From assembly GCA_964400895.1 (NCBI GenBank), contig CAYNWL010000002.1, positions 398,084-462,083 on the forward strand: a stretch of 64,000 nucleotides of DNA. The letters are read 5' to 3'. The notes beneath the pieces were generated by a model. The model had not been told where the DNA came from and searched no databases. It saw only the letters and a list, made by a program, of their open reading frames with translations. Positions 55,519 to 63,494 of the stretch are shown here, piece by piece (position 1 is the first letter of the stretch; each line of letters opens with the position of its first letter). The stretch is from an uncultured Bacteriovoracaceae bacterium (GTDB lineage Bacteria > Bdellovibrionota > Bacteriovoracia > Bacteriovoracales > Bacteriovoracaceae). The position numbers were made by a program, and so were the translations under genes.

Positions 55519-56591
55519 TAAAAATTTTATTTTTACTCTTTTCCTTAAGTGTTTTTTCCCAGGAACAAATTTCTGTAATGACCTATAACATGTCCTTAAA
55601 ATATGGAAAAGAAAATCCTAGATTTCCAGAAATAATCAAGGAACTTAAAAAACTAGATTCGGATATCTTATGTCTGCAAGAGGCCTATGAACCCCAAAAA
55701 GTAATTGATCGATTAGAGTATCCCCACAGTTTTTATGTCGAATCTTCTCAAACTTATTTTTCTTATGGTGTTTGCCCTATTTGGGAGCTTTTTAAATTTG
55801 ATAATCCCTTTATATGTAGAATTAAAAACTGCTCAAATTTTACAGGAAAGGAATTAAACGATTGTCTGGTCGAAAAATGTTTCTCTTCAATGGAAAATTT
55901 AAGGAAAAATAATAACGAGTGTGCCCAGGCCTTTATTACAAGAATCCAAGATAATGCCGTGGTGGATATATTTGCCCTAATAAATCCTTTTAAATCACTG
56001 CCTAAGTTTTTAGATAATGGTTCCACAGGATTGTTAATGCTCTCAAAATTCCCAATACAGAATAAGGAATCAGGCGATTTTTCAACCATATCCGCTATTA
56101 GAAACAGGGGAGTGCTTATCGCGGATATTTCAGGATTTAGGATAATTTGTGCAACAACCACTGGAAGGGGAGGTGGGTATGTCTATATGGGAACAAATGA
56201 TTCCTGGGAAAATGAGAATAAAATCCAAATTGAAAAACTAAAAAAATGGTTGACCGGAAAAAATGATATTTTATTGGGGAACCTAAATTGTTCAACAGAA
56301 GTTCCTTATACAGACATCAAAGAGAGTTTTTCAAAGAATTGTGAAAGTTTGGAAGATATGGGACTTGAGGAACCCATTTATAAAAAACCTGAATGCACGT
56401 ATTGCCCCTATAACAATCTTGTTAGTGATCAGGAACCCGGCGGATTGATAACAGATAATCTATTTATTCGGAAAGATTCGATGATTGATGTAGATGTGGT
56501 CATGAAAAATCTCAATGAATCGGAAAGTTTTTTATCGGATCATTTTGGAGTGAGAGTAATACTTAAAAAAAATCCCCGAGAAGAGGAATAA
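55515..56591 (+). CDS. secreted endonuclease/exonuclease/phosphatase (EEP) family hydrolase
   Basis: Signal peptide, N-terminal ISVMTYNM ... DILCLQEA and C-terminal SDHFGVRV blocks of the EEP fold. Cys-rich insertions. The last codons and stop lie inside the rnpB-derived repeat. Confidence 0.65.
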   Translation: MIKILFLLFSLSVFSQEQISVMTYNMSLKYGKENPRFPEIIKELKKLDSDILCLQEAYEPQKVIDRLEYPHSFYVESSQTYFSYGVCPIWELFKFDNPFICRIKNCSNFTGKELNDCLVEKCFSSMENLRKNNNECAQAFITRIQDNAVVDIFALINPFKSLPKFLDNGSTGLLMLSKFPIQNKESGDFSTISAIRNRGVLIADISGFRIICATTTGRGGGYVYMGTNDSWENENKIQIEKLKKWLTGKNDILLGNLNCSTEVPYTDIKESFSKNCESLEDMGLEEPIYKKPECTYCPYNNLVSDQEPGGLITDNLFIRKDSMIDVDVVMKNLNESESFLSDHFGVRVILKKNPREEE

Positions 56592-56660
56592 GCCGGATTT
56601 TGTTTTCGACCACCATTCCTCTAGGATCCCAGTCGCCTAGGACCTCATGAGCCGTATCCT
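56565..56660 (-). repeat. displaced copy A of the rnpB 3' end (att-like direct repeat)
   Basis: 56567-56631 is identical (65 nt) to 59848-59912, the 3' end of the intact rnpB. Similarity continues in diverged form to about 56660 (gacctcatga gccgtatcc vs gacctcatgc gtcctaccc). Confidence 0.85.
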
Positions 56661-58486
56661 TAAGAGTTTAACTGTTTTCATTTTTAAATAAATTTTTTAG
56701 TTTTTCTTTACTTCTAAGGTCGAGACTGAGTATTGATTCTGACATAGCTTTAATTGTTTTAGATTTTGAAATGAGTTCATCCTTATTTTTAAAGGTTGAA
56801 TGATTAGAATCTGCCATCTGATTAATTATAATAGGCATTACAAAATCAAAAAGTTTCCTGCAGGAGTCCTCTAAGAGGTTTTTATCATTTAAAATATCTG
56901 AATTAAAAGAAAGCTTTCTTTGAGAGAATCCGGACAAAAGGGAACCAATTATTCCTATGGTGTAAAGTACCATATACTTAAAGGTTCCATAATTAAATAA
57001 TTTACTAATTTCACTGAAATTCTCAGAATTCCTTTGATCTAAGGACGCCCTATAGGAATTTAATCTCTTATGTAGAAAATAAAAGGTGAGGTAGTTTTCA
57101 ATAGAGAAATCATCATCCCCGAAAACATTAATGTATTTTGATTCGTTTTCAAAAATTTCGGAATGATTCTTTCCAGCAGTTACTGGATCTCCATAAGCTC
57201 CACAAAGTACTTTTCCCAAAATTTCAAAATCCACGGTCTCTTGAGTTTTTGGTCTGGACCCACCTCTTTGGGTAATATATAAAATTCCTTTTTCTTCCAA
57301 CTTTTCTTTTATTCTCTTTTGAATTCTATCTATTGATCTCAATTCCCACGGTTTAACTGGGTTTTGTGTATTATTATTTTTAATGATTTTTTCAATAATC
57401 TCAGAAGAAGTGGCCTCAATAACCCTTGCAGGTAGGATAATTTTTCCTAATTTTTCTTCTTCCACTTTTGAAAGACATCCACAAGTTTGAGCACCATTAA
57501 TTAAGGTCACTCCCTCAATGGTGACTGAATTTTTGGTGATTTCGGATATTTTAGAGGTTAGTAAAGTTATTCCATTATGAAAGGGCAAAAAATTTTCTGG
57601 TTCATTATTGGCTGTCTGGATAATTGAATTGTTGATATTTTTGCTTGTTTTTCGGGATCCAATAAAATCTCTGATATTCCCACTTGTGAAATCTTCACCG
57701 TATTTATTACTTAATTGGACGAGTTCTTTAGCTTCCATTGTAAAAATACAAGTTTTCCAACGGTCATTTTTAATCAGAATAGTAGGGTAATTTGTAGAAA
57801 TTTTGATTTGGTCAGTGATTTTTATGTTTTCCTGCAATTCCTTTTTAAGGTTAAATAAATGAGTAATTCCAATTTCTTGGCATCTAGCCTCAATATCCTT
57901 GCCTTCCAATTTTGATTCTAGGTTAGCCTTTAGGGTATCCAATTCTTTTTGCACATTTTTGGAATTGGGGAGATTGTGAACATAATAGCAATTAATAGAA
58001 TTAATTTTTTCCTTCTCGATTAATTCTCTTAACTGAATTGCTTTATACTTAATTGTATCACTAGAAATTGACTCTAAATCTGCATCAATCAACCAACTGA
58101 GGGTTCCATTAAGATCCGTGGCTTTTTTAGAGGGAGCTGAGTCCCTTGTCCAATTTTGGGCCAAATAAGATTGTCCCAAATGGACGGCTTCGGTTCGGCT
58201 GTCGTATATAAAAAAATCAAGACCCTTATCATCCACTTTGGTATCATTGTGATCAATAATGTAAGAAGAAAATATCTCTTCGTAATCATTTGTTTTTAAT
58301 AAAACCCCAAGGAAAAATACTAATAAGGAGTTGTTGTTAAATTTTTTTAAATGATCTTTTTCAATCTCACTTTGTACATATTTTACAAAGGCATCTTGGT
58401 CTTTAAACATTTTTTACCTCAAAGGAAAAATTTGAACAATGACCTCTTTTATAAATGTGGGTAGGAAAAATGTCTATATTGGGAGA
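56661..58486. mobile_element. degenerate islet I between rnpB-fragment repeats (cargo: AIPR gene; no integrase)
   Basis: Bounded by rnpB 3'-end copies A and B in the same orientation. Visibly more AT-rich than its flanks. A single gene fills it. Confidence 0.5.
56668..58410 (-). CDS. AIPR-family abortive-infection (phage resistance) protein
   Basis: 580 aa. The N-terminal DDKGLDFFIYDSRTEAVHLGQSYL block and the central GNIRDFIGSRKTSKNINNSIIQTANNEPENFLPFHNGITLL ... LINGAQT block match my recollection of the AIPR (PF10592) signature. Confidence 0.6.
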   Translation of the reverse strand: MFKDQDAFVKYVQSEIEKDHLKKFNNNSLLVFFLGVLLKTNDYEEIFSSYIIDHNDTKVDDKGLDFFIYDSRTEAVHLGQSYLAQNWTRDSAPSKKATDLNGTLSWLIDADLESISSDTIKYKAIQLRELIEKEKINSINCYYVHNLPNSKNVQKELDTLKANLESKLEGKDIEARCQEIGITHLFNLKKELQENIKITDQIKISTNYPTILIKNDRWKTCIFTMEAKELVQLSNKYGEDFTSGNIRDFIGSRKTSKNINNSIIQTANNEPENFLPFHNGITLLTSKISEITKNSVTIEGVTLINGAQTCGCLSKVEEEKLGKIILPARVIEATSSEIIEKIIKNNNTQNPVKPWELRSIDRIQKRIKEKLEEKGILYITQRGGSRPKTQETVDFEILGKVLCGAYGDPVTAGKNHSEIFENESKYINVFGDDDFSIENYLTFYFLHKRLNSYRASLDQRNSENFSEISKLFNYGTFKYMVLYTIGIIGSLLSGFSQRKLSFNSDILNDKNLLEDSCRKLFDFVMPIIINQMADSNHSTFKNKDELISKSKTIKAMSESILSLDLRSKEKLKNLFKNENS

Positions 58487-58610
58487 TAAAAATCCCTGAA
58501 GAGGAATAAGGATTTTGTTTTCGACCACACCTCCTCTAGGACCTCATGCGCCCTACCCACCTGCCAAGTTCTAGCCTGTCATTAATAGCAAATCTATTTG
58601 GGCTTGTCCG
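58487..58610 (-). repeat. decayed copy B of the rnpB 3' end (att-like direct repeat)
   Basis: aaaaatccctgaagaggaataaggattttgttttcgaccacacctcctctagg-acctcatgcgccctacccacctgcca...tagca.atctatttgg.cttg aligns with 59849 to about 59990. Small deletions remove ga, gcc and the 17-nt hairpin atcccaagttacccggg. Confidence 0.7.
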
Positions 58611-58618
58611 AGTCAAGA

Positions 58619-58688
58619 TTGACCCATATTTAGAATAAAAATTAAATATTTTTAAAATTTTATGGTTAATAAATAATGCATGGGTCAA
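58619..58688. promoter_or_regulatory. 9-bp perfect inverted repeat upstream of the orphan gene
   Basis: TTGACCCAT (58619-58627) and ATGGGTCAA (58680-58688), about 100 bp upstream of the 58784 ORF. Could be an operator or a long hairpin. Confidence 0.2.
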
Positions 58689-58783
58689 ATTTTAATATTT
58701 TTTTTAAAGGAGTGGAAAAGAATATTTCCTGTGGTAAAAGTCATTTCTTACTATTTGGATAAATTAAAGGAAATAGAACTAAT

Positions 58784-59788
58784 TTGAGAATGCCTATGAA
58801 TGAGAAAATTGATAAGAAACTAAATAAGTTTGTTACAAAAGCCATTAATTTTGTAAAAAGTTTTTGGCCTACTATTTGTGTAGCATTTTTACTTTTTTGG
58901 GGATTGTGGAAACTTTATCATTTTGGGTCTTTTTTTGAAGAGTCAAATTTAAGAGAAACGATAAGTCTTGGTTCTTTATTTGCGGCGATTGCAATACCAA
59001 TTGTTGTATTTAATTTAAAAAACTTTCAAAAAATCTCTAGGGTAAAAATTCAAGAGGGAAATGCGTATCATGCCTTGGATAAAATAATTTTGGAATTAAT
59101 AAACCTTTATACAAGTCTACCCATATTTTTTGGCAAGGTATTAGATAAAAAAATTATCCAAGAATCTTCTCAAAAATTGCCTTTTCCAGAACTTTGTATT
59201 GATGGAATTTTTCAAATTGTAAAAAGTCAGCACTTACTTAATACAGAAAAGGAACATTTTCGAGATTCTTTAATAAGCCTTACTCCTCAGATTCAAAAAT
59301 TAGAGCAGAATTATAAGGAAACTAAAGATATCCATAATGAATTAGCTTCAATACTAATAAAACCATTATCAGAAATAATTGAAAATGAAGTAAATAAGGA
59401 AGGTTTATTTAAAAAAGGTATACTTGAACCTCAACCTTTTGAATTTTTAAAAATTCACGAATTTCAAACCCAAGTAAGAGAACTTCGAAGAAATATTTCT
59501 GAGACCTTACTGTTATTAATAGAATCAATTGTTATGACCGATTTTATTATTGAAAATAGTAACACCAAAATTGTTAAACAATATTTGGAAAGAATAAATT
59601 TAATAGATTGTGAGGACGTAATTAGAGCTAAATTTCTAAATTTTGTTATTGATGTAAACTATTTTATAGAGGAAAAAAGAATTGCGAAATATATGAAAAT
59701 TTCGGAAAAAAGTTCATTTCCTAAAAATAATATTCCTAAATCAAACAACAAGGATAGGGGAACCGACCTCACCCCTAGCTTAAATTAG
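58784..59788 (+). CDS. orphan membrane-anchored (2-TM) alpha-helical protein, no recognisable family
   Basis: 334-aa ORF (TTG; alternative ATGs at 58790 and 58796). Two N-terminal TM helices (FWPTICVAFLLFWGLWKLYHF, LGSLFAAIAIPIVVFNL). The rest looks helical and charged. It is the only gene in islet II. Confidence 0.5.
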   Translation: MRMPMNEKIDKKLNKFVTKAINFVKSFWPTICVAFLLFWGLWKLYHFGSFFEESNLRETISLGSLFAAIAIPIVVFNLKNFQKISRVKIQEGNAYHALDKIILELINLYTSLPIFFGKVLDKKIIQESSQKLPFPELCIDGIFQIVKSQHLLNTEKEHFRDSLISLTPQIQKLEQNYKETKDIHNELASILIKPLSEIIENEVNKEGLFKKGILEPQPFEFLKIHEFQTQVRELRRNISETLLLLIESIVMTDFIIENSNTKIVKQYLERINLIDCEDVIRAKFLNFVIDVNYFIEEKRIAKYMKISEKSSFPKNNIPKSNNKDRGTDLTPSLN

Positions 59789-59854
59789 AAAAAAATCCTT
59801 TATTTCAATTAAACTGAATTATTTAATCTAAGTTTAAAGCGGTTATGAAAAAAT

Positions 59855-60155
59855 CCCCGAGAAGAGGAATAAGCCGGATTTTGTTTTCGACCACCATTCC
59901 TCTAGGATCCCAAGTTACCCGGGACCTCATGCGTCCTACCCGCCTGCCACGATCTGGCCAATCTTAAATAGCAGGCCTATTTGGACTTGCACCACGTAGA
60001 GTTTACCTGATTTCACTACAGCATGACCTGTACATTCTTTCTGTTGCACTAGTCCTCATCTTGCGATGGACGGGCGTTACCCGCTACGTTGCCATGTGGT
60101 GTCCGGACTTTCCTCCCGTACCCGAAAGTACCAGCGGTAGTCCCCTCTTCTCGAG
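59855..60155 (-). ncRNA. rnpB: RNase P RNA, bacterial type A, compact (~300 nt; ends approximate)
   Basis: The reverse complement has P1 CGAGAAGAGG...CCUCUUCUCG and GGGAGGAAAGUCCGGAC (P4 5' strand). It also has GGGUAACGCCC, AGUGCAACAGAAAG, GGUAAACUCUACGUGGUGCAAGUCCAAAUAGG, and ACAAAAUCCGGCUUAU (P4 3' strand) followed by a U-run. The patch is GC-rich in an AT-rich genome. Confidence 0.9.
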
Positions 60156-60241
60156 AATTATTCATTCAATATTTCAACTTGGCCTATTCGTCAAATTTGG
60201 GTGAAAATACTACAAGTTGGCAATATTATTATGGATTTAAG

Positions 60242-61678
60242 GTGAGAAAATCAAGGTGGATTATTTTCATTTTTCTAATTATTCCCTCAATGGGAAGATC
60301 CGAATTGGTTTCCATGGTAAGGGAACTACTGGCCAATAATTCAGATATTAATACTTCAAAATCCAAAGTTGCCATTTCTGTTAATGAAATTGAAGCCTAT
60401 TATGCAAAGATGCCCTGGTCGTTTATTTATACCGGATCCTACACCCAGGATAAGAGAGATTATCTAATTAAGTTTGTAAATTACAATGCTGAATATTGGA
60501 ATAACGAAATTGGAATTGAAAAGGATTTTATATTCGGCGGGAAATTCAAATATAAAATTTTTAGCAGTAATCAATATCGATATGAGGATAATGCCGCAGT
60601 TTTAGCGGGAGAGCCTCCAAGGGTATTTGAACTCCTCCAAAACATCAATTTTACAGAAGATATTGGGCAGAATTTTTTTGGCCGTGAACAATACAAGGAA
60701 GTTGAGATCAGAGAAAAAAATAAGGGAAATTCCGAATCAGAATATGATCTTGAAATCGAAAACAAGGTATTAGATTTTTTTAGGGCCTATATAAATGTCC
60801 GCCTTTTAAGGACAATTGTTCGAATAGAAGAAAATGCCCTCGAAAGGTCAAAAGAACGGGTTAAAGCCATTTCTCAAATGGTGAAAAATGGCTTAAGACA
60901 AAAAGTTGATATTTTAGAGGCCCAATATCAGGAAATCGAATATGAACAAAGCAAAAGAAGGGCCCTTATTAGTTTAGGTAGTGCACTGGAAGAAATTTCC
61001 AATTTATTACATAGGGAGGTAAAAGTAGAAGAGTTAGAATATCTTATTCCCTTCCAAAAAATTTTTCCCCTCACGCTAAATTCAAAGGGGGAAATCCTTT
61101 CCAATAAAAATATCTTATCATTGGAAACCCAGGCAGAAGTTATAAAGGCCAATCTGGAAAAAATAAATTATGGATTTTTTCCGGAACTAAATTTAGAGGC
61201 CAATTATTTAAGCAATGCAATCGAGCCAACCAGAAAAGAAGCTAATCAATTGGCCTTTTTTGGCCCAGGTTATGAATTTAAAGGTTTGATTAATCTTAAA
61301 TGGCCCTTAGGCTATCCAGAAAAAGAGACTGACAGAACCAGAAATAGGATCGATTTTAATAATCTGCAAGTTAAAAGAAATGCAACCCTAAACAACTTAA
61401 AAAACTCTGAAAAATATATTTTTTTTCGTTTAAAAAATCTGGAAGAAAACTTGGAAATGGGTAAAAAAAGGTGGGAACTTTCAAAAGATATAGTTAAAAA
61501 TTATAACCATCTTTATGGAATTGGGAGAACTCAAATTTTAGAAACAATAACCGCGGAGCAAAATAGGATAGAAACCGAAAGAGGTTATATGTTAAATTTG
61601 GCGGAAAGGGAAAAGCTTTACGCTTCACTGGCCTACTTGTGGGGTAGGCTTAAAGATACGGTTCTCACAATTAAGTAA
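60242..61678 (+). CDS. TolC-like outer-membrane efflux protein
   Basis: The GTG at 60242 gives signal peptide (M)RKSRWIIFIFLIIPSMG and avoids rnpB. OEP-like N-terminus (LVSMVRELLANNSDINTSKSKV) and two helical-repeat halves. The first 51 codons of the ORF-track start at 60089 are antisense to rnpB. Confidence 0.5.
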   Translation: MRKSRWIIFIFLIIPSMGRSELVSMVRELLANNSDINTSKSKVAISVNEIEAYYAKMPWSFIYTGSYTQDKRDYLIKFVNYNAEYWNNEIGIEKDFIFGGKFKYKIFSSNQYRYEDNAAVLAGEPPRVFELLQNINFTEDIGQNFFGREQYKEVEIREKNKGNSESEYDLEIENKVLDFFRAYINVRLLRTIVRIEENALERSKERVKAISQMVKNGLRQKVDILEAQYQEIEYEQSKRRALISLGSALEEISNLLHREVKVEELEYLIPFQKIFPLTLNSKGEILSNKNILSLETQAEVIKANLEKINYGFFPELNLEANYLSNAIEPTRKEANQLAFFGPGYEFKGLINLKWPLGYPEKETDRTRNRIDFNNLQVKRNATLNNLKNSEKYIFFRLKNLEENLEMGKKRWELSKDIVKNYNHLYGIGRTQILETITAEQNRIETERGYMLNLAEREKLYASLAYLWGRLKDTVLTIK

Positions 61679-62384
61679 TACTACTGGGAAGAAGAATCCT
61701 TCCACAGCTTGGACAAGTTTCTACCGTTGTTAAATGTTCCACCTCCTGGCAAACCATAGATGGAATCGACATTTTGCAAACGCCACATTTACCGTGTTCT
61801 ATAAATGCCAAGGAATTTGTTTTAAATTTTTTGTTGATGGCCAAAAAGATAGCACCAATTTCCTTTGGTAAAATGGAAATAAGATTTTTTTCTCTTTCTT
61901 TTAGGTTTTTAATTTCTTTTAATTCAATATTGTTTTTTTCTTCAACTTCTTTTTTGATATCTAAAATAGTTTTTTGAATTCCTTCCTGGAAGGATTCAAA
62001 ATCCTTTAGTGAGGTTTGAAGGGTTTCTTGTTCTTCCAATAGACTAAAAATCTTATCTTCCAGGGCCAATTTATTCTTTTGTAATGAAGATATTTCCTCC
62101 GATATGGCATTGGCCTCTTTTTCAGATACAACTTTTTTTTGGTTTACCAGGGCATCGGTTAGTTTTTTATCTGTTTTAAAAAGTGACCCCTCATTTTCTT
62201 TTAAATCTAAATTTATTTTGGACAGATCGGCCTTTTCCCTCAAATATGTCTCATTCCGCCATTTTATTTGGGCCCCAATATCTTTAATGCGTTTTAGTTC
62301 CCCTTCCATTTTTTGATTTAAAGTCTCAATTTTCTTTTGTAGGGATTGGATTTGAATTAGGTCTAAAAAGCTATCTTTTAACAT
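61671..62384 (-). CDS. coiled-coil protein with C-terminal C4 zinc ribbon (COG1579-like)
   Basis: About 190 aa of heptad-rich coiled coil, followed by CGVC...(x23)...CPSCGRIL. Confidence 0.6.
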   Translation of the reverse strand: MLKDSFLDLIQIQSLQKKIETLNQKMEGELKRIKDIGAQIKWRNETYLREKADLSKINLDLKENEGSLFKTDKKLTDALVNQKKVVSEKEANAISEEISSLQKNKLALEDKIFSLLEEQETLQTSLKDFESFQEGIQKTILDIKKEVEEKNNIELKEIKNLKEREKNLISILPKEIGAIFLAINKKFKTNSLAFIEHGKCGVCKMSIPSMVCQEVEHLTTVETCPSCGRILLPSSIT

Positions 62385-62486
62385 TAATAGAACCTAAGGC
62401 CGCAGAAGTTTTAAGTAAAAATAAATTTTACTTTGGATAAAAATAACGCTAATAGTAAATTAGAATATTTTATTATGTAGTGCGTT

Positions 62487-63494
62487 ATGAGTGGTAATAC
62501 TTTTGGAAAAATTTTCTCCTTCACTACCTTCGGGGAATCTCACGGCCCCTCTCTTGGCGTTGTTGTAGATGGCGTACCCCCAGGACTTAATTTTTCCCTT
62601 CAAGACCTCCAAAATGAGTTAAATAAAAGAGCTCCAGGTAAAATAGCAGGAACCACCTCAAGGCAAGAACCGGATAGAGCAGAAGTTCTTTCAGGTATTT
62701 TTAATGAAAAAACATTAGGCACTCCCATTGCAGTTGTAGTTCGAAATGTTAATCAAAAAAGTGAAGATTATGATTCCCTTAAAGAAGAGTTTAGGCCCGG
62801 CCATGCTGATAAAACCACGCTTTTAAAGTATGGGATAAGAGATCATCGGGGCGGAGGCCGTTCAAGTGGCAGAGAAACCTTGTCTAGAGTTATCGCTGGT
62901 TACTTTGCTGGACTAATTGTGCCAGAGATTAGAGTTTTCGCTTTTATCAATCAATTAGGTCCCTATAAAGTAAAAGATAAAAACCCTAAAGAGTTTTCTC
63001 TTAATCAGGATCCATTCTCTTTTCCCTTTGGAGATAGAAGAGAGGAGATAATTCAATTTCTTCTAGATTTAAAAAAAACCGGCCAATCCGTTGGTGGAAA
63101 AATTTCGGTAATTATCGATAACTGCCCAGCAGGGCTAGGTGAACCGGTTTTCGATAAGCTAAAGGCCGATTTTGCTAAGGCCTTTCTATCGATAGGTTCC
63201 TGTGTTTCCTTTAGTTATGGACTAGGTGAGGAAATGGCCGAAAAAATGGGTACAGATATATCCATAGATTCCTCCAATTTTGGTGGCATGGAAGGAGGCA
63301 TTTCTTCAGGTGAGAGAATTTTTATGGAGTGCGCGTTTAAACCTCCTTCCACAGTAGGGGAAAAGGCAAAACTTGGAAGACATGATCCTTGTATATTACC
63401 AAGAGTGATTCCTGTGGTGGAATCAATGGCCAAAGTGGTATTGGCAGACCATTACTTGAGACAAAAAGCCTATGCAGACAAATATTCAATTTAA
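62487..63494 (+). CDS. aroC: chorismate synthase
   Basis: N-terminal GNTFGKIFSFTTFGESHG, then RPGHAD and GGGRSSGRET blocks. Confidence 0.9.
   Translation: MSGNTFGKIFSFTTFGESHGPSLGVVVDGVPPGLNFSLQDLQNELNKRAPGKIAGTTSRQEPDRAEVLSGIFNEKTLGTPIAVVVRNVNQKSEDYDSLKEEFRPGHADKTTLLKYGIRDHRGGGRSSGRETLSRVIAGYFAGLIVPEIRVFAFINQLGPYKVKDKNPKEFSLNQDPFSFPFGDRREEIIQFLLDLKKTGQSVGGKISVIIDNCPAGLGEPVFDKLKADFAKAFLSIGSCVSFSYGLGEEMAEKMGTDISIDSSNFGGMEGGISSGERIFMECAFKPPSTVGEKAKLGRHDPCILPRVIPVVESMAKVVLADHYLRQKAYADKYSI

Follow-up and report, generated by a model that had tools for sequence, protein, structure and literature searches.

A very rare family of membrane-anchored proteins with a candidate defence role, one member of which is the sole cargo of an islet beside rnpB

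Introduction

What is a single open reading frame (ORF) doing as the only gene between the RNase P RNA gene (rnpB) and a second, diverged copy of that gene's 3' end? The question is raised by a locus in the window, a 64,000-nucleotide stretch of DNA. A sequence-only reading of the window had described the ORF product as an orphan membrane protein and had proposed it, by association with its surroundings, as a candidate defence gene, with a membrane protein left over from a mobile element as an equal alternative.

Proteins of several kinds are relevant to this question. Membrane-spanning effectors of abortive infection include the CBASS and Pycsar effectors with two or four transmembrane (TM) helices, the SLATT-domain proteins and lambda RexB. 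Phage superinfection-exclusion membrane proteins include T4 Imm, P22 SieA and lactococcal Sie2009, and the classic superinfection-exclusion and entry-exclusion (Sie/Eex) proteins act at the envelope face. Islands carry non-defence cargo too. The phage biology of the predatory Bdellovibrionota is little studied.

Results and Discussion

Architecture of the islet

The ORF lies in the right-hand of two neighbouring insertions, which are bounded by rnpB and by partial copies of it:

56567-56659, rnpB fragment A, the left boundary of the AIPR islet
56668-58410, minus strand, AIPR/AbiU-like gene, in the next islet leftward, which is bounded by fragments A and B
58488-58606, minus strand, rnpB fragment B, a diverged, indel-bearing copy of the last ~136 nt of rnpB
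59854-60153, minus strand, rnpB, the intact class A RNase P RNA gene (Rfam, 217.9 bits)

Fragment B and the intact rnpB gene enclose a 1.25-kb AT-rich insert (58607-59853). Its right boundary is the 3' end of intact rnpB, and its left, att-like boundary is fragment B. When aligned to rnpB 59849-59989, fragment B shows indels and lacks one internal stretch, with 81% identity over 68 nt. The first 65 nt of fragment A (56567-56631) are 100% identical to rnpB 59848-59912.

The genome of a relative provides an empty site. In this genome OEP, rnpB, an EEP hydrolase gene, mutY and nadB are contiguous, with the end of EEP 9 nt from rnpB and nothing between the two. The window has 3.3 kb between EEP and rnpB, and this DNA must therefore have been inserted. 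A second rnpB-like match is present in just two of the 41 genomes of the family, the window genome and one other, and no further rnpB-like att copy is found elsewhere in the window assembly.

The AIPR/AbiU-like gene matches the Pfam AIPR family (1.3e-26), the PADLOC AbiU model (1.1e-37) and phrog_1841 (9.3e-65). It is the only gene in its unit, and neither this unit nor the ORF islet contains a recombinase gene. The AIPR islet is a separate insertion, and the AIPR gene is not a conserved partner of the family to which the ORF belongs. We considered the ORF and the adjacent AIPR gene as a two-gene system and rejected the pairing, a diverged rnpB fragment lies between them and none of the homologues of the ORF has an AIPR neighbour.

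A cis-mobilizable element (CIME) is defined as an element that has kept its att sites and lost its genes for integration and transfer, and tandem accretion places such elements one beside another at the 3' end of their target gene (PMC5704250). Compared with this description (PMC5704250), the islet is alike in having direct repeats of the rnpB 3' end on both sides, in containing no integration or transfer genes (the ORF has no recombinase domain) and in standing in tandem with a second unit, the AIPR islet. It differs in its target, which is the RNase P RNA gene and not a tRNA gene or a protein gene. No description of rnpB as a site of island integration came up in full-text literature searches. 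A further difference is that each rnpB unit is cut down to one gene. We suggest that the islet is a decayed integrative element, CIME-like in its sequence features, which used the rnpB 3' end as its insertion point, kept its att-type repeats and lost its integrase.

A real gene of foreign composition

The following features were located in the islet:

58607-58783, no strand, AT-rich upstream region of 177 nt
58619-58627 and 58680-58688, 9-bp perfect inverted repeat
58680-58787, 35-codon upstream ORF, ending 2 nt before ATG 58790
58768-58773, AAGGAA, Shine-Dalgarno-like site 10 nt before the TTG
58784-59788, plus strand, protein-coding gene, 334 aa from TTG 58784, with the stop codon TAG at 59786-59788

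The sequence-only reading had seen one ORF filling the interval between fragment B and rnpB, and this ORF is indeed the only credible gene there: no other candidate of 50 aa or more within 58607-59853 has any support. Alternative in-frame starts are ATG 58790, which gives the 332-aa form that is on record, and ATG 58796 (330 aa). The longest open frame in the islet spans 341 codons, compared with a mean of 66 and a maximum of 133 in 2000 shuffles. First codon positions of the ORF have a GC content of 37%, third positions one of 20%. Its overall GC content of 27.3% lies well below the genome ORF mean of 35.9% (sd 3.0) and ranks in the bottom 0.15% among 1373 long ORFs; the AT-richness reported earlier is thus borne out, and it fits a recent acquisition from an AT-richer donor. 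The ORF converges on rnpB, and no terminator-like site is present on the plus strand between the two.

The analysis shows a real and conserved gene that is of foreign origin and is carried on an island. It is full length relative to all of the homologues described below, and it is not a pseudogene, since every residue that is invariant in the family is present. The earlier reading had named pseudogenisation in relatives as a reason to abandon its proposal; the window gene shows no sign of it.

The upstream region contains little that stands out. The inverted repeat, which had been pointed out before, exists, but it does not exceed chance: when the 177-nt region is shuffled, 23% of the shuffled sequences contain a perfect inverted repeat of 9 bp or more. 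The motif has 22 copies in the genome with no special distribution. We therefore rejected the repeat as an operator, an att site or a hairpin, it being at chance level. The predicted RNA fold of the region is no better than that of shuffled sequences (z = -0.27), and the number of promoter-like sites equals the shuffled expectation, with no site standing out. The AAGGAA site and the 35-codon upstream ORF, which has no Shine-Dalgarno site of its own, are likewise not above chance.

These observations bear on the possibility that the islet is a decaying, non-functional remnant in which the ORF looks intact and is no longer expressed. The islet has lost its integrase and has no promoter-like site above chance, as such a remnant might. 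The completeness of the ORF and its invariant residues argue against this, and a 334-codon frame in DNA of 27% GC would not stay open long without selection. We regard a dead remnant as highly improbable.

Members and distribution of the family

The description of the protein as an orphan does not hold. An exhaustive phmmer (HMMER) search of 1.84 billion representatives found seven full-length relatives of 305-336 aa, which align with the window protein nearly end to end at 22-29% identity (E-values of 2.7e-20 to 4.3e-7). Each relative is a singleton cluster, found on one or two contigs, and the family thus comprises eight singleton clusters among ~15 billion proteins. Word-indexed searches, including one of 5.8 billion clusters, returned the protein itself or itself together with one relative (P0010). 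Although the GC content of their hosts ranges from 27% to 48%, the members agree in length, in having both TM helices and in 14 invariant residues.

The earlier statement that the protein has no recognisable motif stands, as none of the libraries Pfam, PADLOC, PHROGs and NCBIfam yields a family for it. In Pfam-A the window protein matches no family and the eight members together give scattered single matches with E-values of 0.0047 or more. The 5027 models of PADLOC-DB v2.0.0 contain no match at E<=1 for the window protein and none at E<=0.1 for any of the eight members. The best NCBIfam match has an E-value of 0.13, no PHROG is common to two or more members, and sequence and profile searches of the PDB gave nothing below an E-value of 0.076. 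No significant HMM match to the SLATT/DUF4231, HEPN, Fic or Abi families was found in Pfam-A, NCBIfam or PHROGs. This is a new and very rare protein family of a familiar kind, namely single-gene island cargo and a candidate defence gene.

The family is accessory, with a patchy distribution and no conserved core context. At least two of the eight members come from Bdellovibrionota: the window protein and P0007 (WP_415063737.1), from a Bdellovibrio sp. The ffh gene of the P0007 host is 84% identical to those in genomes of a genus in the phylum of the window genome, and sequence comparison places the window organism in Bdellovibrionota, in a family other than that of the P0007 host. The protein family is missing from 460 further genomes of the phylum (60 relatives and 400 sampled), and none of the 44 species genomes of the genus to which the P0007 host belongs has it. 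It was not found by tblastn in 50,697 phage records or 72,556 plasmids, and IMG/VR contigs contain no relatives of the four family members that were searched there. Scans of genome contigs with single proteins of the family likewise gave no further member.

Several other matches were rejected as members. P0009 is a protein of 2505 aa that shares short stretches only (the best of 39 residues). A weak match in the genome G356 is a cytochrome bd subunit II matched through its TM segments. The matches in loci L002 and L003 are false positives, and a metagenome match (L018) proved to be a LacI-type regulator with a peptide in common by chance.

Predicted structure of the protein

The protein is predicted to consist of an N-terminal membrane hairpin followed by a helical domain:

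58862-58921, plus strand, predicted TM helix 1, residues ~25-44 of the 332-aa form (hydropathy, AF2 helix)
58961-59017, plus strand, predicted TM helix 2, residues 58-76 (hydropathy, AF2 model)
59018-59719, plus strand, predicted cytoplasmic all-alpha domain, residues ~77-310

A Lys-rich N-terminus with a net charge of +4 precedes TM helix 1. TM helix 2 is preceded by a short, acidic loop of 12 residues and followed by Lys/Arg-rich sequence. By the positive-inside rule, applied to the window protein, we infer an N-in/C-in hairpin, which places the C-terminal domain on the cytoplasmic side. The ~250 aa that follow the hairpin are predicted to be all-helical, and the hydropathy analysis and the AlphaFold2 (AF2) model agree on the two N-terminal TM helices and the helical remainder that the sequence-only reading had proposed. 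By alignment both N-terminal hydrophobic segments are kept in all eight members; a crude hydropathy scan separates the two in five of them.

The family is characterised by the motifs IIKSxxFLxTENxxF, VxKExxFxxGxLxPQPxEF and (D/E)VNxxIExxR. The 14 invariant residues are L103, F113, K145, F157, L171, V201, E204, G210, P214, P216, F219, R233, N290 and R297.

A single-sequence AF2 model was unusable (pLDDT 38). A model built with the shallow alignment of the eight sequences has a pLDDT of 76.3 and a pTM of 0.63, and several 10-residue blocks, spread across much of the soluble domain, average a pLDDT of 87-93. This model is all-helical. TM helix 2 runs on into a helix of 67 residues, after which come three helices of ~32-34 residues joined by short, conserved connecting segments. 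The fold as modelled is a simple bundle of helices and has no enzymatic motifs.

Searches with this model used a threshold of a Foldseek E-value of 0.001 or less together with a meaningful TM-score. The best match in the PDB has an E-value of 0.059, with TM-scores of 0.15-0.25 to designed helical bundles, and the best match among the viral structures of BFVD has an E-value of 0.086; neither is significant. No catalytic or pore-forming fold was recognised in these structure searches. The structural check that the sequence-only reading had called for thus matched no known fold in the PDB or BFVD. Homology to a housekeeping protein or a structural phage protein, which that reading had said would count against its proposal, is seen in none of Pfam, PADLOC, PHROGs, NCBIfam, the PDB and BFVD.

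Genomic context of the relatives

The neighbourhoods of the seven relatives are as follows:

P0008 (locus L011), 298 nt upstream of ShosT (3.5e-43) and ShosA (7.1e-70), on the same strand
P0005 (L007), converging, at a distance of 20 nt, on full-length Rosmer RmrA (1.1e-144)
P0004 (L006), preceded by genes for a tyrosine integrase and an acetyltransferase and by a 109-aa integrase fragment with 54% identity to the tyrosine integrase
P0007 (L009 and L010), diverging from a Nuc_deoxyrib_tr/TIR-like gene (7.9e-10), near DUF4258
P0003 (L004), adjoining an NTP_transf_2/NTase_sub_bind pair (MNT/HEPN-like) and a tRNA at the contig end
P0010 (L005), adjoining PemK and a small upstream gene
P0006 (L008), among TnsA-like, DUF2779/Cas4-like, HNH, trypsin-like (protease) and HigBA-like genes

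All seven relatives are found in variable or mobile contexts and none in a conserved core context. Downstream of P0004 are an ISL3 transposase and an hsdR-hsdM-hsdS type I restriction-modification (R-M) operon. The full integrase and the integrase fragment at this locus show the CIME type of decay in progress. P0005 was considered as the Rosmer toxin RmrT and rejected: it converges on rmrA, a cut ORF lies directly upstream of rmrA on the rmrA strand, and there is no PADLOC match.

P0007 lies within a 6.1-kb block between direct repeats of 143 nt (88% identity), adjoining a tRNA-Met gene. In the two genomes nearest to the P0007 host, synteny with locus L009 ends at the gene beside tRNA-Met, and neither these two genomes nor any of the 44 species genomes of the genus has the block. 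A conserved core-genome setting, another outcome that would have spoken against the defence proposal, is thus seen for no homologue, and in the case of P0007 synteny breaks at the island.

No neighbour family is common to the loci, which means that the family has no conserved partner gene, and none of the eight loci contains conjugation or virion genes. These findings are relevant to the idea that the protein is an exclusion or entry-blocking protein, of the superinfection-exclusion or conjugative entry-exclusion type, left behind by a decayed integrative element or prophage. Such a protein would protect the host of the element from related elements by a means other than abortive infection. 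Like the superinfection-exclusion proteins, the ORF product is small, is predicted to lie in the inner membrane and is encoded by a lone accessory gene on what appears to be a mobile-element remnant, with no partner. One homologue, P0008, is found on a contig that also bears a D5_N/DUF5906 primase gene, a type of primase that is typical of satellites or integrative elements. Against this, no prophage context and no phage copy of the family was found, the searches of phage records, plasmids and IMG/VR and the PHROG comparisons giving no consistent match, and conjugation and virion genes are missing from all eight loci. The ORF product is also larger than these exclusion proteins and mostly predicted to be cytoplasmic (~250 aa), in contrast to the classic proteins of this type with their action at the envelope. 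We consider an exclusion protein unlikely.

The toxin-antitoxin modules beside P0003, P0010 and P0006 (three of the seven relatives) bring to mind a membrane toxin or addiction-type gene that maintains the islet and does not defend against phage, its antidote being an unrecognised small RNA, a short upstream ORF or autoregulation. The predicted hairpin of two TM helices resembles that of small membrane toxins, and a 35-codon ORF ends just before ATG 58790. The family members, however, have 305-336 aa and a large soluble domain that is conserved, which makes them far bigger than type I membrane toxins. The loci share no conserved adjacent small gene, the structure of the upstream region does not exceed that of shuffled sequences, and the upstream ORF is without a ribosome-binding site of the Shine-Dalgarno type. 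An addiction gene is therefore rather improbable.

Association with defence systems

A specific defence system lies within five genes of the family member in four of the eight loci, window included: AIPR/AbiU, the Shosta pair, RmrA and the type I R-M system. One further locus has a TIR-like neighbour, which is weaker, and three have toxin-antitoxin, nuclease or protease modules. The count takes in specific systems that are complete or full length, and covers eight sequences, several of them on short contigs. If a background of 10-15% per locus is assumed, the probability of finding four or more of eight such loci is ~0.005-0.02, a weak statistic with so few sequences.

The raw number of PADLOC families was rejected as a measure of enrichment, as the control did not discriminate. 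In this control 54 ordinary genes of the window matched 28 PADLOC families at E<=1e-5, compared with 41 for 51 neighbours of the family, and the control matches came through generic ATPase, kinase and sigma-54 activator domains. Because raw PADLOC matches are so unspecific, the case for defence is carried by the few complete or full-length systems.

The association of the family with defence is suggestive, and it fits any mobile-island cargo equally well. The inspection of homologue neighbourhoods that the sequence-only reading had recommended came out in the direction of its proposal. With specific systems at four of the eight loci the gene is a plausible defence candidate, by an argument of guilt by association drawn from eight sequences.

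Single-gene defence candidates that were predicted by guilt by association, such as the PDC families of PADLOC-DB v2, offer a comparison. The family is similar to them in being a protein of unknown function found near known defence systems and mobile-element genes. It differs in that the ORF is not among the 5027 PADLOC v2 models, and eight singleton clusters are too few for the usual statistical criterion to be applied confidently.

The protein could also be accessory cargo with no part in genetic conflict that hitch-hikes in variable regions. It might, for example, be anchored in the membrane for a role in signalling, as a scaffold or in the envelope, perhaps in connection with predation in Bdellovibrionota. 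The presence of at least two of the eight members in Bdellovibrionota would suit such a role, as would a plain helical bundle that has no enzymatic motifs. A function in lifestyle would be kept more widely, whereas the family is sporadic (found in 0 of 44 species genomes of the genus and 0 of 460 genomes of the phylum), and its neighbours are conflict genes and not envelope or signalling genes. Non-conflict cargo is again unlikely.

A possible function in abortive infection

We propose that the ORF encodes a stand-alone, membrane-anchored defence protein of the abortive-infection type, which is the sole cargo of a decayed integrative element; we give this reading a probability of about 0.4. 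A stand-alone anti-phage function appears the most likely because every member of the family sits alone among defence, toxin-antitoxin and recombinase genes. It is quite unlikely that the truth lies outside this and the other four explanations considered here.

Both the defence role and a mechanism of membrane disruption are inferred, the latter by analogy with known membrane effectors. The cytoplasmic helical domain may sense a phage product or a change induced by infection, and this sensing might involve the invariant residues K145, E204, R233, N290 and R297 together with the GxLxPxPxxF loop. The long helix that forms TM helix 2 and its stalk would then drive oligomerisation of the membrane hairpins. 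Such hairpin oligomers could permeabilise or depolarise the inner membrane, and phage replication would stop.

The protein proposed here would be like the membrane effectors of abortive infection in its N-terminal TM hairpin with a cytoplasmic domain, in its defence-island setting and in the suggested permeabilisation of the membrane after a cytoplasmic trigger. It differs from them in that the eight members have no match in Pfam (including the SLATT and DUF4231 models), in PADLOC or among known structures. It also differs from effectors of the CBASS and Pycsar type, as no cyclase or other signal-generating partner is conserved beside the family. The protein would have to sense infection alone.

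We hold more tentatively that the family represents a new group of single-protein, membrane-anchored anti-phage systems. These would have an all-alpha cytoplasmic sensor fold that has not been seen before, would sense infection without a partner and lead to the killing or arrest of the cell, and would travel as a one-gene cassette at RNA-gene sites (rnpB and tRNA genes) in Bdellovibrionota and other bacteria.

Conclusions

The practical value of the family is limited by its rarity. This same rarity shows how much single-gene island cargo escapes the annotation of defence genes by HMMs. The locus illustrates clearly how an integrative element can be worn down to one gene, here at the unusual target rnpB. 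If the ORF is a defence gene, a self-contained sensor and effector with a new fold would join the catalogue of bacterial immunity, and it would be among the very few defence candidates from the predatory Bdellovibrionota.

Gene boundaries around rnpB

The 334-aa membrane protein gene lies beside the intact rnpB gene, and the features of this part of the window are as follows:
58619-58627 and 58680-58688, arms of a 9-bp inverted repeat
58680-58787, upstream ORF of 35 codons, starting within the right arm of the repeat
58784-59788, plus strand, the membrane protein ORF, from TTG (or ATG at 58790)
59854-60153, minus strand, intact rnpB
60089-61678, strand opposite to rnpB, mechanically called ORF of the outer-membrane efflux protein family, starting inside rnpB

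The 35-codon ORF ends in a TGA (58785-58787) that shares nucleotides with the TTG start codon, and the ATG follows after a gap of 2 nt, a geometry like that of translational coupling. This small ORF has no Shine-Dalgarno site and is probably due to chance.

At the other end of the gene, a scan of 59789-59868, between the stop codon and the 3' end of rnpB, found no plus-strand terminator-like site. The sole hairpin in this interval is the minus-strand terminator of rnpB. Transcripts of the membrane protein gene could therefore extend antisense into rnpB.

Two gene annotations appear to need correction. The first 50 or so codons of the efflux ORF (60089-60235) are almost certainly a spurious extension, and tblastn matches in relatives start at residue 2-8 of the version begun at 60236. 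The second concerns P0010 (L005:866-1834), a distant homologue of the membrane protein, which is named 'ABC-type multidrug transport system fused ATPase/permease subunit' by JGI. This name looks like a misannotation, because a Pfam profile search detected no ABC domain in the protein.

PADLOC matches of ordinary genes

As a control, 54 ordinary ORFs of the window (1-56591 and 60089-63494) matched 28 PADLOC families at E<=1e-5, including RtcR-type (4e-69), mad3 (9.5e-58) and LmuB (2.1e-20), presumably via generic domains. This calls for caution before a single PADLOC HMM match is taken to mark a defence gene.

The rnpB site and homologue loci in relatives

The rnpB site is empty in the relative G007 (G007:C11:36000-45500), where the gene order is OEP, rnpB, EEP hydrolase, mutY, nadB and the EEP gene ends 9 nt from rnpB. 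In G001 and G025 the EEP gene is absent and mutY adjoins rnpB. Only one other genome of the family, G022, has a second rnpB-like match, an internal piece close to a contig start; it may be a fragment left by the assembly or else a further rearrangement linked to rnpB. This match and the features at two homologue loci are:
G022:C9:1063-1238, second rnpB-like match, 108 bits, model positions 73-214
L009:7010-7152 and L009:13125-13267, direct repeats, 143 nt, 88% identity
L006:7334-8527, full tyrosine integrase
L006:9461-9790, integrase fragment, 109 aa, 54% identical to the full integrase

The repeats in L009, a Bdellovibrio sp. contig, flank a 6.1-kb block adjoining tRNA-Met. Besides the homologue P0007, this block contains a TIR-like gene, DUF4258 and a MerR-domain protein of 494 aa, whose gene overlaps at its 3' end with the right-hand repeat. 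The two nearest genomes lack the entire region left of tRNA-Met.

At L006 both integrase sequences lie just upstream of the homologue P0004, the fragment 1 kb beyond the full gene. This arrangement suggests that two related integrative elements accumulated in tandem and that the integrase of the second is in decay, the same process as we infer for the window.
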